Below the pieces are notes generated by a model. That model had not been told where the DNA came from, searched no databases, and saw only the letters and a list, made by a program, of their open reading frames with translations. Position numbers and translations under genes: made by a program. Source: a virus (Duplodnaviria > Heunggongvirae > Uroviricota > Caudoviricetes). Taken from it: 17,907 nucleotides of DNA. The stretch is taken from IMG/VR virus record IMGVR_UViG_3300008453_000586, one strand, 5' to 3'. Shown piece after piece: positions 3,760 through 9,093 of this stretch (within the stretch, counting starts at the first letter, position 1; each line of letters opens with the position of its first letter).

Positions 3760-3978
3760 ATGGGATTAAACAAAGAACAAATTTTATCAATCATCAGACA
3801 AGTATTAACAGCTACTGGTGCGATTTTAATTACAGCTGGTGTTATGAAAGAAGGAATGACCACAGAAATTCTAGGTACAATTATGACTCTTATATCAGCA
3901 GTATGGTCTATAGTTGATAAAACAGACGCTAATATTGTCAAAAAATTTGATAATATTCAAGCAAAATTAAAAAAATAA
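3760..3978 (+). CDS. Small two-TM protein, putative holin
   Basis: 72 aa with two hydrophobic helices and a basic C-terminus. Confidence 0.6.
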   Translation: MGLNKEQILSIIRQVLTATGAILITAGVMKEGMTTEILGTIMTLISAVWSIVDKTDANIVKKFDNIQAKLKK

Positions 3979-3986
3979 AAAAATAA

Positions 3987-4029
3987 TTGCAAAAAAACTT
4001 GACTTGTATTAAAACTTTTAGTATATTTG
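3987..4029 (+). promoter_or_regulatory. Host-type promoter heading tRNA array 1
   Basis: CTTG (3998-4001), 20 nt, TATATTTG (4022-4029); 3987-4015 is identical to 8078-8106. Confidence 0.75.
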
Positions 4030-4075
4030 CACATATTTATTAATCAACGGGGTAAAACCCACAAAAAAACAAGAA

Positions 4076-4153
4076 ATGAAAAATTTATTTAACTTAGAAG
4101 TCCTTTTAGTCTTATGTCTACTTTTAGTGGATAGGGTGGGTTATATTTGTTAA
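4076..4153 (+). CDS. Putative attenuator leader peptide 1 (MKNLFNLEVLLVLCLLLVDRVGYIC)
   Basis: ATG...TAA, 25 aa, below the ORF-track cutoff; Leu x8, Val x4, Cys x2; lies between promoter and terminator. Confidence 0.7.
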   Translation: MKNLFNLEVLLVLCLLLVDRVGYIC

Positions 4154-4177
4154 TGATTTTTCATAATTATAATAATT

Positions 4178-4209
4178 AAAACCCATTTAAGAAATTAGAT
4201 GGGTTTTTT
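4178..4209 (+). terminator. Intrinsic terminator/attenuator before array 1
   Basis: ACCCATTTAA-GAAA-TTAGATGGGT stem plus T6; 5' arm can alternatively pair with 4134-4142. Confidence 0.8.
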
Positions 4210-4222
4210 GTTTAAACATAAT

Positions 4223-4303
4223 GCCGTGATTCCTGAGTGGTCAAAGGGAGCGGACTGCAAATCCGCTGCGAAAGCTTCGTGGGTTCGAATCCCTCTCACG
4301 GCT
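4223..4303 (+). tRNA. tRNA-Cys(GCA) with long variable arm
   Basis: GCCGTGA/TCACGGC acceptor, GCGGA-CTGCAAA-TCCGC anticodon arm, U73, GC-GAAA-GC variable hairpin. Confidence 0.85.
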
Positions 4304-4317
4304 CTATAAGAGAAAAA

Positions 4318-4623
4318 ATGATGATGGAAAAAAACGAAATTAAAAAAGACTTGTATAAGTCAAAAAATCTGGCTAAGTTTAGCCACTACGTCAGCGGAAA
4401 CTTATATTACAAAGTTGAGCTACAAGATGGGCTGTATCAGTTCCCAATAAAAACTGTTGAAAAGAAATATGTGATGGATACTCGTGAAGTTGAAAAGATT
4501 CCAACACTGGTGTTAGCCGAAGATTTAGGTACCACAACATTTGATGCCGAAATAAAAGGTTCAGAATTAATAAGATGGATTGAAAGAGCCATCGACAATG
4601 AAGACTTCATCAAGGTAGGTTAA
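4318..4623 (+). CDS. Hypothetical protein
   Basis: Start at the ATG run 4318/4321/4324; the tracked upstream extension overlaps tRNA-Cys. Confidence 0.7.
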   Translation: MMMEKNEIKKDLYKSKNLAKFSHYVSGNLYYKVELQDGLYQFPIKTVEKKYVMDTREVEKIPTLVLAEDLGTTTFDAEIKGSELIRWIERAIDNEDFIKVG

Positions 4624-4636
4624 TTCCTACCCAACC

Positions 4637-4711
4637 GCACCCATAGCTCAGTTGGTTGAGAGCGCTTGTTTTACACGCAAGAGGTCACTGGTTCGAATCC
4701 AGTTGGGTGCA
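4637..4711 (+). tRNA. tRNA-Val(TAC)
   Basis: GCACCCA/TGGGTGC acceptor; CTTGT-TTTACAC-GCAAG anticodon arm; GGTTCGAATCC T arm. Confidence 0.92.
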
Positions 4712-4720
4712 CAACCACTT

Positions 4721-4750
4721 GGCCGAGTGGTGGAATGGTAGACACGCGGG
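4721..4750 (+). pseudogene. 5' half of tRNA-Leu (direct repeat of 5214-5244)
   Basis: GGCCGAGTGGTGGAATGGTAGACACGCGGG matches the 5' end of tRNA-Leu(TAA) except a 1-nt indel; it stops in the anticodon stem. Confidence 0.8.
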
Positions 4751-4784
4751 ATGACTTTTCTATCATATCTACATATTTATTAGT

Positions 4785-5210
4785 ATGGAAGATATAGAAT
4801 TCATCAAAGTGTGTCAAGAATCTGACACCATGGCAAAGGCGGCTGCAACTCTAGGGTTGCATTTTAATACCTTTAAACGTAAAGCAGTTAAATTAGGTTG
4901 TTACGAACCAAATCAAGCTGGTAAAGGTATTACTAAAAAAGATAATGGTAATAAAATACCATTAAAAGAAATATTAGAGGGTAAACACCCTTATTACCAA
5001 ACTAATAAATTAAGAAAAAGATTAATTAGTGAAGGTTACAAAACTGGCGAATGTGAAATTTGTCATATTACTGAATGGAATGGTCAAGCAATTACAATTG
5101 AGCTAGACCACATAGACGGTAATAGAAACAACCATTATTTAGAAAACTTGAAAATGTTGTGTCCAAACTGTCACAGTCAGACACCAACGTTTAGAGGTAA
5201 AAAAAGATAG
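4785..5210 (+). CDS. HNH homing endonuclease
   Basis: CEIC...ELDHIDGNRNNHYLENLKMLCPNCHSQT zinc-binding HNH motif. Confidence 0.92.
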   Translation: MEDIEFIKVCQESDTMAKAAATLGLHFNTFKRKAVKLGCYEPNQAGKGITKKDNGNKIPLKEILEGKHPYYQTNKLRKRLISEGYKTGECEICHITEWNGQAITIELDHIDGNRNNHYLENLKMLCPNCHSQTPTFRGKKR

Positions 5211-5213
5211 AAT

Positions 5214-5299
5214 GGCCGAGTGGTGGAATTGGTAGACACGCGGGGTTTAAGCCCCCGTGCTCAGTAATGGGCGTGAGGGTTCGAGTCCCTCCTCGGCTA
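5214..5299 (+). tRNA. tRNA-Leu(TAA)
   Basis: CGGGG-TTTAAGC-CCCCG anticodon arm, long variable arm, A73. Confidence 0.92.
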
Positions 5300-5304
5300 C
5301 AAAT

Positions 5305-5388
5305 GGCCAGATGGCGAAACAGGTAGACGCGCAAGACTCAAAATCTTGTGTCCGCAAGGACGTGTGGGTTCGATTCCCACTCTGGCTA
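5305..5388 (+). tRNA. tRNA-Leu(CAA)
   Basis: CAAGA-CTCAAAA-TCTTG anticodon arm, GTCC-GCAA-GGAC variable arm. Confidence 0.92.
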
Positions 5389-5419
5389 CAATAACGTATT
5401 AATTAAAAATTATGAAAGT

Positions 5420-5557
5420 ATGAATTTTGTATGTTGTAAATGTGGAGAAATAATCCACGGACCTTCAATGGTAGTAAATAATAAAATATTACACTTAGAT
5501 TGTGTCAATAAAATAAAAAAAGAAAAAGAAGAAGACGTTAAATTGGAAGAAGTTTAA
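5420..5557 (+). CDS. Small putative zinc-binding protein, 45 aa
   Basis: CCKC...HLDC (CxxC/HxxC); ATG at 5420. Confidence 0.5.
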   Translation: MNFVCCKCGEIIHGPSMVVNNKILHLDCVNKIKKEKEEDVKLEEV

Positions 5558-5572
5558 CATAAAACAATAATA

Positions 5573-5764
5573 ATGAGAGTAACATTCAAATATATCAGCT
5601 TGAAATACTATCCTTTAAACAAGATAGGGTGGTGGATATGGTATTTCAAAAAATACAGTTCTATCAAAGGGTTCAACATTAGAATCTTTGGGTGTCATTT
5701 CAATGTGAGGGAAAACAATGCTACTGCCAAGATTATTAAACAAATCCAAGATAGGAAAAAATAA
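5573..5764 (+). CDS. Hypothetical protein, 63 aa
   Basis: ATG with A-rich leader; fills the gap between tRNAs. Confidence 0.5.
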   Translation: MRVTFKYISLKYYPLNKIGWWIWYFKKYSSIKGFNIRIFGCHFNVRENNATAKIIKQIQDRKK

Positions 5765-5768
5765 GATT

Positions 5769-5849
5769 GCCCGTGTGGTGGAATGGTAGACACGGCACGT
5801 TTAGAGCGTGTTCCCGAAAGGGGTGCGAGTTCGAGTCTCGCCATGGGTA
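5769..5849 (+). tRNA. tRNA-Leu(TAG)
   Basis: GCACG-TTTAGAG-CGTGT anticodon arm, CCC-GAAA-GGG variable arm. Confidence 0.92.
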
Positions 5850-5856
5850 CAAAAAT

Positions 5857-5931
5857 GGGTATGTAACTCAGTTGGTTCAGAGTGCTTTCCTTACAAGGAA
5901 GAAGTCGGGGGTTCGAATCCCTCCATACCTA
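5857..5931 (+). tRNA. tRNA-Val(TAC)
   Basis: GGGTATG/CATACCT acceptor; CTTTC-CTTACAA-GGAAG anticodon arm. Confidence 0.9.
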
Positions 5932-5935
5932 CTAA

Positions 5936-6015
5936 AAGATAGTTTCAGCAAACTAAACGGTTAAAATTTTGTCCTAAACACGAAACGAAGTGGTTCAATC
6001 CCACAAAACTATCTT
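5936..6015 (+). ncRNA. tRNA-fragment-like RNA closed by a stem carrying TTCAGCA
   Basis: AAGATAGTTT/AAACTATCTT closing stem; inner TTTTGT-CCTAAAC-ACGAAA hairpin and GTGG-TTCAATC-CCAC T-like arm; ends resemble 15275-15406. Confidence 0.55.
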
Positions 6016-6021
6016 GTACCT

Positions 6022-6104
6022 GCCGCTGTGGTGGAATGGTAGACACGCCAGACTAAGAATCTGGTGCCCGAAAGGGCGTGCTGGTTCGAGTCCAGTCAGC
6101 GGTA
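6022..6104 (+). tRNA. tRNA-Leu(AAG)
   Basis: CCAGA-CTAAGAA-TCTGG anticodon arm, Leu-type D arm and long variable arm. Confidence 0.9.
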
Positions 6105-6121
6105 CGAATTATTGGTAAAAT

Positions 6122-6150
6122 AAAAAGGGGTTATTAAAACCCCTTTTTTT
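6122..6150. terminator. Bidirectional terminator closing array 1 and the convergent gene
   Basis: AAAAAGGGGTT-ATTA-AAACCC-T8. Confidence 0.75.
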
Positions 6151-7648
6151 ATATTTTTATTTTTTTAGTGATAACACTATTGTTCTTCGTTTGTGCTACA
6201 ACAATGTACAGACCTTCCCTTAAAACAGATAAATCCAAATCTTCTGAAACTAACTGACCATACAAAGTGTATACCTTAACCTTAATAATTTCATCATCTT
6301 GTATATATATTCGCTTATTTACTATGTTTAAAGTTGCTACTGTATATGTTCGTAGTAAATCATTAAAACCTTCAGTGGTCCATGTATTCAAATTAGATGT
6401 TTGAATAGAATATAATCTATTGTTAAGCATAGGGTCTGGTAAATTAAGGTATAATTTATACGTACCCACTGGTAACCCTAAAGTTGTTAAGTTAGTAGTA
6501 ATGTTATAACTTGTTGACGTACATCTTTTAATATCGCTATCTATTTCAAAAGAATAATTTACATTTGTGCTAGTATTTTTACACACCAAAAATGCTTTTC
6601 TAGTTTTAAACAAATTAGCATACCCATAATTACCTATGTTAATTGTAAGAACACCATTGGTAATGTTTGAAGAATTTAACCTCAAATTATAACCTAAGTT
6701 TCTTTGCATGGTTGTAAAACAACCATTGGTTTGCCAGTTTGATATAACTGTTGGGAAATAATCTTTATTGATAAGACTCCAATTAAATCTATCCATTTCA
6801 ATCATAGCGTTTGAACAATCAGTTCTAGGGGCGTTGACCATATTACTTTCACCGCTTACTGGGTTATTAAAAGTGTTGGTTTGCCAATATGTTATGTCGC
6901 TAGAAGTAGGCTGTCCTTGTGAACTATTAACTACAAAGGTACCACTATCACCCCACGTTCCTAAAAATGAGTCATTGTAGAAACCTATTCTTCCGATAAA
7001 TGTGTTTCCATACATTTTTTGTTTAGCGAAAATATACCTAACTTGTAATGGAATTGAAGAATTAAAAGAACTAATCATTCTATCCATTACTTCTTTTCTG
7101 TTGCTCCACTGTGTGGTTGTCAATACTGTAAAATTACCATCGCCAAATTCAGAAGAACCTGTATAGTACCATTCACCATACTTACCTATAAACCCAGCTT
7201 GAATACTAACAATAACATCTCTGTTAGAGTTTATTACTGGTGCTAATTGCTGAATGTGAGCAAGTATTTGAGCTTTAGTTGGTTGGAAAACAGGTGTAGT
7301 ACTTGATGATGAATATGTAAATCTAACAATTACTTTAGCACCAGCATTCCTAATTCTATTAAAATCAGTTTGCATATTTGTTAAGTATGTTGATGTGATT
7401 GGTATACCTGTAATAAAATCTCTCAAAAAGAATTGTCTTTGTATTACGGTAATGTTTTCGTTGGTTCTATACCCACTCAATGTAGATTGAGATAATAGAT
7501 TATAACCACCAGACGAACCAGTAGAAGTGTAACGATAAAAACCTTTTTCTGGGTTAGAGATAACTACGTTGGATGAAGCGTAAGTTACATTTTGACTAGT
7601 TATCATTACTGAGAATGATAAAAATAATAGTAATAAAAATTTTTTCAT
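6149..7648 (-). CDS. Secreted DUF4874/DUF4832-like putative glycoside hydrolase with T9SS-type C-terminal domain
   Basis: Signal peptide; NPEKGFY, RFTY, QAGFIGKYGEW, GFYNDSFL motifs; C-terminal KVYTLYGQLV...GLYIV...TKKIKI. Confidence 0.7.
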   Translation of the reverse strand: MKKFLLLLFLSFSVMITSQNVTYASSNVVISNPEKGFYRYTSTGSSGGYNLLSQSTLSGYRTNENITVIQRQFFLRDFITGIPITSTYLTNMQTDFNRIRNAGAKVIVRFTYSSSSTTPVFQPTKAQILAHIQQLAPVINSNRDVIVSIQAGFIGKYGEWYYTGSSEFGDGNFTVLTTTQWSNRKEVMDRMISSFNSSIPLQVRYIFAKQKMYGNTFIGRIGFYNDSFLGTWGDSGTFVVNSSQGQPTSSDITYWQTNTFNNPVSGESNMVNAPRTDCSNAMIEMDRFNWSLINKDYFPTVISNWQTNGCFTTMQRNLGYNLRLNSSNITNGVLTINIGNYGYANLFKTRKAFLVCKNTSTNVNYSFEIDSDIKRCTSTSYNITTNLTTLGLPVGTYKLYLNLPDPMLNNRLYSIQTSNLNTWTTEGFNDLLRTYTVATLNIVNKRIYIQDDEIIKVKVYTLYGQLVSEDLDLSVLREGLYIVVAQTKNNSVITKKIKI

Positions 7649-8077: not shown

Positions 8078-8120
8078 TTGCAAAAAAACTTGACTTGTAT
8101 TAAAACAGTTCGTATCTTTG
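8078..8120 (+). promoter_or_regulatory. Host-type promoter heading array 2
   Basis: CTTG (8089-8092), 20 nt, TATCTTTG (8113-8120); shares 29 identical nt with 3987-4015. Confidence 0.75.
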
Positions 8121-8180
8121 CAATGTAATTAAAAAAAGGCAACCTCCTTTCTAAGTTACAAACAACGTTAAAACAAAAAA

Positions 8181-8310
8181 GTCTAGGTCCGTAGGGCTGT
8201 GACGGTATGTGAGGAAAGTGACTACGGAGCAAACGTATAACTGTATGAAACAAAGCAGATGTCCTTCGCATTTAAATTGAAAGTGTAACATATTTCAGCC
8301 GTCACTACTT
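8181..8310 (+). ncRNA. Unassigned structured RNA
   Basis: GTAG..TGACGG/CCGTCACTAC, TGTGAGGA/TCCTTCGCA, alternative TCCGTAG/CTACGGA; GC-richer than flanks; no ORF. Confidence 0.4.
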
Positions 8311-8379
8311 TTAACGTAAAAAAAAAAAGAATTTTTAAAAAAAACAACATATTTATAAACAAACATAAAAAGAAATACT

Positions 8380-8469
8380 ATGAGAACTTTTGCTAACATA
8401 TTTGATTTTGCATTTTTTGCTGCCGAGGAGGATTGCTTCTCTGGAGGGTCGTGTGTTGCCAATAGTTAA
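8380..8469 (+). CDS. Putative attenuator leader peptide 2 (MRTFANIFDFAFFAAEEDCFSGGSCVANS)
   Basis: ATG...TAA, 29 aa; Phe x6, Ala x5, Glu x2, Asp x2; directly upstream of a terminator and array 2. Confidence 0.7.
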   Translation: MRTFANIFDFAFFAAEEDCFSGGSCVANS

Positions 8470-8497
8470 CAGTTAGAAATAACTCAACCATAGTAAC

Positions 8498-8528
8498 AAG
8501 CCTGACCCTAATAAGTCAGGCTTTTTTT
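8498..8528 (+). terminator. Intrinsic terminator/attenuator before array 2
   Basis: AAGCCTGAC-CCTAATAA-GTCAGGC-T7; 5' arm can alternatively pair with 8445-8454. Confidence 0.85.
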
Positions 8529-8612: not shown

Positions 8613-8648
8613 CAAGAAAAAAAAAATTAAAAAAAAGTTCATTGAAAA

Positions 8649-8679
8649 TTTGGAGATTAAAAAATAAGTTGTATATTTG
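8649..8679 (+). promoter_or_regulatory. Internal host-type promoter in array 2
   Basis: TTTG (8649-8652), 19 nt, TATATTTG (8672-8679). Confidence 0.7.
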
Positions 8680-8693
8680 CAACGAAATTAAAA

Positions 8694-8766
8694 GGTACCT
8701 TAGCTCAGTTGGTAGAGCACTGCACTGAAGATGCAGGTGTCCCCAGTTCGAATCTGGGAGGTACCA
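8694..8766 (+). tRNA. tRNA-Phe(GAA)
   Basis: GGTACCT/AGGTACC acceptor; CTGCA-CTGAAGA-TGCAG anticodon arm. Confidence 0.93.
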
Positions 8767-8980: not shown

Positions 8981-9056
8981 GGCCCCGTCTTCTAAATTGG
9001 ACTAGGAAGCCACCCTTTCAAGGTGTGTAATGCGGGTTCGAATCCCGTCAGGGCTA
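8981..9056 (+). tRNA. tRNA-Glu(TTC)
   Basis: CACC-CTTTCAA-GGTG anticodon arm; canonical T arm; one acceptor mismatch. Confidence 0.85.
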
Positions 9057-9093
9057 CAATCTGGTTAAGATTCCAGTAATCAAAAATCTAAAT

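Follow-up and report, generated by a model that had tools for sequence, protein, structure and literature searches.

Leader peptides that match the tRNAs behind them: a probable transcription attenuator in front of a phage tRNA operon

The closest described relatives of the element considered here are the leader-peptide attenuators of enterobacterial amino-acid operons, represented by trpL, hisL, leuL and pheL and by the multivalent leaders of ilvGMEDA, with Ile/Leu/Val codons, and of the thr operon, with Thr/Ile codons. A leader peptide, pheM, also controls pheST of Escherichia coli. To our knowledge, all described members of this group control either amino-acid biosynthesis or aminoacyl-tRNA synthetase genes, and tRNA genes themselves are usually regarded as growth-rate-controlled or constitutive. 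In the Bacteroidota, the presumed host phylum of the phage studied here, the Bacteroid-trp motif has been read as a Trp peptide leader, and if this is so, such control exists in that phylum as well. The motif (Rfam RF01692) was reported as a candidate cis-regulatory leader in Bacteroidetes before trp genes (PMC2864571), and a His leader is found before hisS paralogues in Bacillus (PMC2965389). In the present work we analyze a stretch of 17,907 nucleotides (nt), the IMG/VR virus record IMGVR_UViG_3300008453_000586 (Caudoviricetes), which is called the window below. Between positions 3987 and 6148 it carries a predicted promoter, a 25-codon leader open reading frame (ORF) rich in Leu, Val and Cys codons, a terminator and an array of tRNA genes for the same three amino acids (unit 1), and we consider it very probable from the sequence evidence that a ribosome-mediated transcription attenuator gates this phage tRNA operon.

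Like the enterobacterial attenuators, unit 1 has a promoter-proximal short ORF rich in the codons that would be sensed, an intrinsic terminator before the first structural gene, several amino acids in one leader, and an antiterminator that is mutually exclusive with the terminator and uses its 5' arm (segment 3), the partner strand (segment 2) being located within the leader itself. Unlike them, it precedes tRNA genes and not biosynthetic enzymes, the product thus directly relieving the shortage that would be sensed; it is phage-borne, with many units per genome and one unit per tRNA block; it has no clear 1:2 anti-antiterminator; and its promoter and start context are of the Bacteroidota type. 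The genes under its putative control, seven tRNAs and small ORFs, lie outside the described attenuator targets. Leader control of synthetases is similar insofar as genes of translation supply stand under codon-specific leaders, and relatives of this phage have such units before synthetase genes, whereas the known targets are synthetases only, each a single gene in a bacterial genome. T-box riboswitches likewise respond to the state of one particular tRNA and choose between terminator and antiterminator upstream of translation-supply genes, but they bind the tRNA directly, without translation, and no features of the T-box (RF00230) are present here. The covariance models of the Rfam peptide-leader families (Trp, Leu, His and Thr leaders, and Bacteroid-trp) gave no match at this locus; the Bacteroid-trp motif also differs in its sequence and in the biosynthetic genes that it precedes. 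In a literature search, no report was found of tRNA genes or phage tRNA arrays controlled by a leader peptide or by attenuation, in agreement with an earlier interpretation of this DNA made from its letters alone (the sequence-only reading), which had known of no such case among phage tRNA arrays.

The leader ORF (4076-4153) is the sole sizeable forward ORF from the promoter to the next gene, and its start context is A-rich and lacks a Shine-Dalgarno sequence, as is typical of Bacteroidota. Its extent and its codons are those given by the sequence-only reading (Leu TTA x5, CTT x2 and CTA x1; Val GTC x2 and GTG x2; Cys TGT x2), and the count of 14 Leu, Val and Cys residues made there also stands, here taken over the 24 residues after Met. 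With the amino-acid frequencies of long ORFs from these phages as background, 3.6 such residues are expected (binomial P = 1.3e-6). Among the 1166 ATG-initiated ORFs of 18-40 codons found on both strands of nine related loci, this leader is the only one in which the three amino acids make up a fraction of at least 0.58.

An exact IMG/VR search with the leader itself gave no match and a blastn search of the leader against GenBank phages gave chance hits only, and relatives were therefore reached via the neighboring gene of an RlaP-type nucleotidyltransferase (432-1655), which led to 80 IMG/VR loci. In all of these, a unit was defined as a terminator followed within less than 400 nt by a tRNA gene on the same strand, together with an ATG-initiated ORF of 10-50 codons that ends at most 70 nt before that terminator. 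The Cys/Val/Leu unit was recovered in 18 further distinct versions (19 with the window's own; found via the RlaP gene at 91-66% identity), and in each of them the array opens with tRNA-Cys(GCA), behind which lie Val and Leu tRNAs. When the ortholog leaders are pooled, Leu accounts for 26%, Val for 17.5% and Cys for 8.4% of the residues, compared with 8.0, 5.8 and 1.2% in long ORFs, and the three together for 52% vs a background of 15%.

The same rule was applied to three huge phages (LR756502.1, LR756501.1 and LR745206.1), where leaders of other compositions precede other arrays. A leader with seven Gln codons stands before four Gln tRNAs, and a Leu-rich leader before five Leu tRNAs. A Ser/Arg run is followed by Arg and Ser tRNAs, a K-H-F(-W) leader by Phe, His, Lys (and Trp) tRNAs, and an E/Y leader by Glu and Tyr tRNAs. 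In the more mixed cases, I/G/A precedes Ile, Gly and Ala tRNAs; N/L/T/V precedes Asn, Leu, Val, Thr and Ile tRNAs; M/I/Q/E precedes Met, Gln, Ile and Glu tRNAs; and T/P/A/V/R/G precedes Arg, Thr, Val, Ala, Gly and Pro tRNAs. When the arrays were permuted among the leaders, no other of the 5040 pairings did as well as the true one in either of two genomes, and overall the true pairing gives 242 matched residues vs 93 ± 15 after permutation. With the IMG/VR units included, the 57 distinct leaders show 644 residue matches to their own arrays, compared with 301 ± 26 and a maximum of 419 in 100,000 shuffles. Furthermore, the two lineages combine Phe with different partners, Glu/Asp/Ala in that of the window and His/Lys in the other, and the composition of the leaders changes accordingly. 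The earlier expectation that leader composition tracks the downstream tRNA set thus holds for about a dozen leader classes from several phage lineages, and this match is the strongest evidence for the attenuator.

This evidence also bears on the rival that survives best, namely a general sensor of translation coupling or timing without amino-acid specificity, in which any slowing of the ribosome or loss of coupling late in infection would result in read-through and the composition of the leader would be incidental. In its favor, the geometry as such does not depend on which codons are used, segment 2 being placed at the end of the leader; a folded nascent transcript adopts the antiterminator, and the match between individual codons and anticodons is modest. 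However, the leaders differ sharply within one genome and each fits its own array, to the point that the true assignment is the best of 5040 in two genomes, and over the 57 leaders the match reaches a z of about 13, which leaves an unspecific sensor with a small residual probability.

Additional support for the attenuator comes from the manner in which the leader has evolved. All 19 versions retain the ATG, the reading frame and the stop codon (DNA alignment A1). Indels within the core of the ORF (columns 1-52) always span a multiple of three nucleotides, those in the spacer an arbitrary number. At the peptide level, the central Cys and its preceding Leu never vary, the neighboring columns are mostly Leu or Val, and Leu and Val swap within the sensed set. 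The Leu columns mix TTA/CTT, TTA/CTA/TTG and CTA/CTT, meaning that the codon box changes and the amino acid does not. Conservation of the ORF, on which the sequence-only reading had staked its case, is therefore of the coding type; it bears signs of selection on the translated product or on its codon classes, and the leader ORF is presumably translated.

Translation would not be needed if the locus sensed tRNA directly in the manner of a T-box, with codon-like triplets that bind the anticodons of uncharged tRNAs and thereby stabilize the antiterminator. Both the genes under control and the codon runs have to do with tRNAs, and a terminator/antiterminator switch is also what T-boxes use, but the conserved ATG, frame and stop and the restriction of core indels to multiples of 3 nt argue against such a mechanism, and the changes of Leu codon box would break direct codon-anticodon pairing. 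In addition, no T-box was detected at gathering score in the window or at E-values up to 5 in 3980-4225, the leader matched no other Rfam family at gathering score, and neither a Stem I nor a T-box sequence is present. We regard direct sensing of this kind as very unlikely.

The hairpin that would act as attenuator starts 24 nt past the leader stop codon, and tRNA-Cys begins 16 nt beyond it. Its presence had been noted correctly in the sequence-only reading at 4178-4209, with boundaries that required correction: the stem, of 13 bp with a 4-nt loop, ends at 4207, and the U-rich tract continues to about 4213. In the 19 versions, 89% of the cells of the terminator helix are paired and six pairs show double changes, and none of 500 shuffles was as good. 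The alternative helix, also proposed earlier as mutually exclusive with termination, was confirmed between 4134-4142 and 4180-4188; it comprises 9 bp, of which three are G-U, with a computed energy of -11.1 kcal/mol, and segment 2 sits 10 nt before the end of the leader stop codon. The antiterminator is paired in 88.9% of the alignment cells, as opposed to 30-60% after one side has been shifted by 1-3 columns. At one of its positions, U-A is replaced by C-G in seven sequences; the change on the leader side is in the synonymous third base of a Gly codon, and the terminator 3' arm changes along with it. Compensatory changes of this type had been suggested as a check on the antiterminator, and the conservation among relatives supports the likeness to the geometry of amino-acid operons that was then pointed out.

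Folding of a nascent transcript that ends at 4194, before the 3' arm exists, gives 11 antiterminator pairs, and a ribosome footprint on the leader stop codon excludes the antiterminator in folds. The signal is shared by other units: for 20 units from four phages, the best duplex of the upstream 100 nt with the terminator 5' arm has a mean z, relative to dinucleotide shuffles, of -2.63, vs -0.28 for 47 other terminators of the same loci (Mann-Whitney P = 3.7e-7), and in the 20 units segment 2 is always located in the last codons of the leader. For the terminator that closes the operon, no upstream antiterminator was found (z = +0.89).

These pairings are also relevant for the idea that the product of the small ORF is a hydrophobic micropeptide with a function of its own, for example a membrane peptide, and that the hairpin is its terminator or a processing site. 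The peptide is indeed hydrophobic, helix-like and conserved in sequence, and a holin-family gene lies just upstream. Yet the sister leaders are acidic/aromatic, poly-Gln or Ser/Arg-rich and have the tRNA match as their sole common property, a terminator placed directly between a promoter and tRNA genes is meaningful only if the stop is regulated, and the 3' codons of the leader covary with the terminator arm; a micropeptide consequently has hardly more than a slight chance of explaining the locus. AT-rich DNA gives many Leu-rich small ORFs, but a chance ORF beside an ordinary terminator is effectively refuted by the permutations (z 10-13), by the absence of the antiterminator signal from control terminators and by the conservation in 19 versions of an ORF that is the most extreme of 1166.

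Several points weigh against the attenuator and have to be set beside this evidence. Orthologous units are not independent of each other, and the independent evidence consists of the roughly one dozen different leader classes. The codon-anticodon match, with 532 of 636 vs 499 expected, is modest, as the typical array already serves the majority of the codons for its amino acids, and the two conserved GTC Val codons are a suboptimal match to tRNA-Val(UAC). Sporadic extra tRNAs in the arrays of some relatives (His, Met, Pro and a UCA tRNA) are not mirrored in the leaders, and the window itself has tRNAs without a leader unit, at 8694 and 14413-15494. As for the RNA structure, a conserved hairpin inside the leader (4116-4132), a possible pause or '1' element whose 3' arm abuts the antiterminator strand, does not take in or sequester segment 2, which is reached only by weak extensions in minimum-free-energy (MFE) folds, and no classical 1:2 anti-antiterminator is demonstrated. 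The full transcript at equilibrium favors the terminator, and folds with a masked ribosome vary with the stall position and are not decisive; the switch would therefore rest on kinetics. The RNA data comprise three metatranscriptome runs and one doubtful RNA run, in small shares, with contigs that cannot show RNA ends; the contigs that align to 3900-6200 come from relatives and lie over the HNH gene and the tRNAs, none covers the leader or 4131-4207, and they therefore speak neither for nor against the attenuator.

If the attenuator operates as proposed, a host-type RNA polymerase would start at the promoter (3999-4029) and transcribe the 25-codon leader with a ribosome trailing behind it. Upon quick decoding of the Leu, Val and Cys codons, the ribosome would reach the last codons or the stop and cover segment 2, the hairpin 4178-4207 would form, and transcription would end in the U-tract before tRNA-Cys. 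When charged tRNAs are scarce, the ribosome would lag in 4100-4129 and leave segment 2 free, which could then capture the terminator 5' arm as it emerges; no terminator would form, and the polymerase would read through into the seven tRNA genes. The signal would thus be the availability of charged Leu/Val/Cys-tRNA, and the new tRNAs would decode the same leader, resulting in a negative feedback by which the supply of tRNAs is matched to demand, separately for each operon and its group of amino acids. The parts of this switch, their conservation, the alternative pairings and the agreement of leaders with tRNAs are found in the sequences, and from them we infer translation of the leader, the direction of the switch and the cause of a tRNA depletion. 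Candidates for this cause are the AT-rich codon demand of the phage or general feedback, the decay of host tRNAs during infection and host defenses that cleave tRNAs, among which the sequence cannot discriminate.

Phage tRNAs have been described as a counter-defense against tRNA-targeting immunity (PMC10264068, PMC11555353, PMC11464382); these papers give a reason for replacement tRNAs on demand, but describe the tRNAs and not the sensing or control of their transcription. Tentatively, and with rather less than even confidence, one may extend the proposed control to a distributed sensor of decoding speed, in which each tRNA block, and in relatives each synthetase gene, would be switched on when its own codons are read slowly. 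The arrays would then represent an inducible counter to tRNA-depleting defenses (anticodon nucleases, PARIS, retron effectors), alongside the adjacent tRNA-repair genes. The RlaP-type RNA-repair gene just upstream fits a conflict over tRNAs, but is no proof of it.

The features of the locus and of the related units are listed in Table 1. The predicted promoter of unit 1 combines a sigma-70-like -35 element (TTGACT, 3999-4004) with the -7 box TAnnTTTG that is characteristic of Bacteroidota promoters (TATATT at 4022-4027 as part of TATATTTG at 4022-4029), and transcription would start near 4035. The 29-nt element that overlaps the promoter has two exact matches, where none is expected, and the layout CTTGAC...GTAnnTTTG is common to all 19 orthologous units. 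A -7 box is located at most 130 nt upstream of 47 of the 57 leaders, as opposed to 11% of random windows. The holin-family gene ends at 3978, just upstream of this promoter.

Two candidate elements in the 5' untranslated region (UTR) were rejected. A match to PreQ1-I (RF00522) at 4043-4078, on the small 5'-UTR hairpin and the A-rich tract, has 16 bits (E = 0.6) with a gathering score of 39 and was judged to be due to chance, as the hairpin is absent in relatives or has a loop of 3-4 nt. A 5'-UTR copy of the terminator arm, AAAACCCA (4054-4061), pairs with segment 2 in the masked folds, which is unrealistic around a ribosome; it belongs to the small hairpin present only in some relatives and was not retained as a conserved anti-antiterminator.

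Table 1. Positions of the features of unit 1, of the second unit in the window and of leader units before synthetase genes in relatives
Feature	Position	Strand	Basis or remark
Upstream promoter element, 29 nt	3987-4015	+	Exact second copy at 8078-8106, before the second leader unit
Promoter: TTGACT, 17-nt spacer, TATATTTG	3999-4029	+	Read from sequence
Small 5'-UTR hairpin (GGG/CCC)	4049-4060	+	Covarying stems, only in a subset of relatives
Leader ORF, 25 codons, ATG...TAA	4076-4153	+	Conserved in 19 distinct versions
Putative regulatory codon run V-L-L-V-L-C-L-L-L-V, codons 9-18	4100-4129	+	Ortholog alignment
Conserved hairpin inside the leader ORF	4116-4132	+	RNAalifold consensus (A1 columns 44-63), compensatory pairs; also in MFE folds
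Antiterminator strand (segment 2), GGGUGGGUU, codons 20-23	4134-4142	+	
Attenuator terminator: 5' arm 4178-4190 (segment 3), loop 4191-4194, 3' arm 4195-4207 (segment 4), U-rich tract	4178-4213	+	
tRNA-Cys(GCA), 82 nt, long variable arm, U73	4223-4304	+	
ORF of 101 aa	4318-4623	+	Weak phrog_20427 match only
tRNA-Val(UAC)	4637-4712	+	Rfam
Duplicated 5' fragment of tRNA-Leu, beside the HNH gene	4721-4751	+	Read against 5214-5245
HNH homing-endonuclease-like ORF, 141 aa	4785-5210	+	phrog_10822, E = 2e-31
tRNA-Leu(UAA)	5214-5300	+	Rfam
tRNA-Leu(CAA)	5305-5389	+	Rfam
Two small ORFs, 5420-5557 and 5573-5764	5420-5764	+	
tRNA-Leu(UAG)	5769-5850	+	Rfam
tRNA-Val(UAC), second copy	5857-5932	+	Rfam
tRNA-Leu(AAG)	6022-6105	+	Rfam
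Closing terminator	6122-6148	.	Also faces the convergent gene 6149-7648(-)
Sister unit: 29-codon leader 8380-8469, core FDFAFFAAEED; terminator 8498-8523	8380-8523	+	
Leader units before synthetase genes (LR745206.1 and LR756502.1)	L014:67-165, L013:4876-4979, L003:6215-6331, L011:5086-5180		

The block behind the attenuator (4223-6105) contains seven tRNA genes, four small ORFs and a tRNA-Leu fragment. The set named by the sequence-only reading, one Cys, two Val and four Leu tRNAs, is thereby upheld, whereas its statement that the array consists of tRNAs only is not. The long, class-II-like variable arm and the U73 of tRNA-Cys(GCA) are unusual for a tRNA-Cys. About 30 nt of a tRNA-Leu 5' end are doubled upstream of the HNH ORF, with the full tRNA-Leu(UAA) at 5214, and the fragment together with the HNH ORF resembles what a homing endonuclease would leave behind after inserting next to a tRNA gene.

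The second leader unit of the window precedes an array of Phe, Phe, a UCA tRNA, Glu, Asp, Asp, Thr and three Ala tRNAs, and the F/D/A/E core recurs in its orthologs, again ahead of Phe/Glu/Asp/Ala arrays. Its 5' region is much longer than that of unit 1: from the second promoter copy (8078-8120) to the second ATG, about 255 nt (8125-8379) contain no convincing ORF or Rfam match. The tRNA with anticodon UCA in this array (8981-9057), which ARAGORN calls as selenocysteine (SeC), is not represented in the leader and looks like an opal suppressor. A promoter-like site at 8640-8693, with the -7 box TATATTTG near 8673, is located right before the second tRNA-Phe without a leader, and some of this array may thus be transcribed from there as well, bypassing the attenuator.

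Two further observations concern units of the relatives. At L003:1959-3046 and L014:2204-3252 attenuators occur in tandem; the Pro/Asp leader there also has several Gln codons, and after the Pro/Asp tRNAs a second, poly-Gln leader with its terminator would gate the Gln tRNAs. An extra tRNA in the Phe/His/Lys array of LR756502 had been considered as a tRNA-Trp, which would explain the Trp of the leader, and was found to be a second tRNA-His.

Leader units are not restricted to tRNA arrays, since several control terminators with strong antiterminator scores proved to be leader units before aminoacyl-tRNA synthetase genes. A Leu-rich ORF of 14 codons precedes an enzyme of class I (I/L/M/V) and an Asn-rich ORF an enzyme of class IIb (D/K/N), and both leaders fit their enzyme classes; two more leaders were found before a second class IIb enzyme and before a HisRS-like gene.

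The host is likely a member of the Bacteroidota, because two window proteins end in a sorting domain of type IX secretion, the promoters have the -7 box, and the starts are A-rich and lack Shine-Dalgarno sequences. The sequencing runs that contain this DNA are freshwater metagenomes, and the nearest DNA in GenBank is LR756502.1, an uncultured phage of 642 kb, with a match over the tRNAs only.

Provided that the attenuator works as proposed, a shortage of decoding capacity would here switch on the genes for that very capacity, a direct feedback on the tRNA pool that connects to recent work on host defenses that destroy tRNAs. For annotation, the composition of a leader predicts the tRNAs of a transcription unit, including the long-arm tRNA-Cys, and their reading. 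In Bacteroidota, the leaders would also offer compact, naturally occurring sensors of how fast selected codons are decoded. As for the question why large phages carry many tRNAs, the locus suggests a testable answer, namely that these tRNAs may be a reserve regulated by amino acid and not a fixed supplement.

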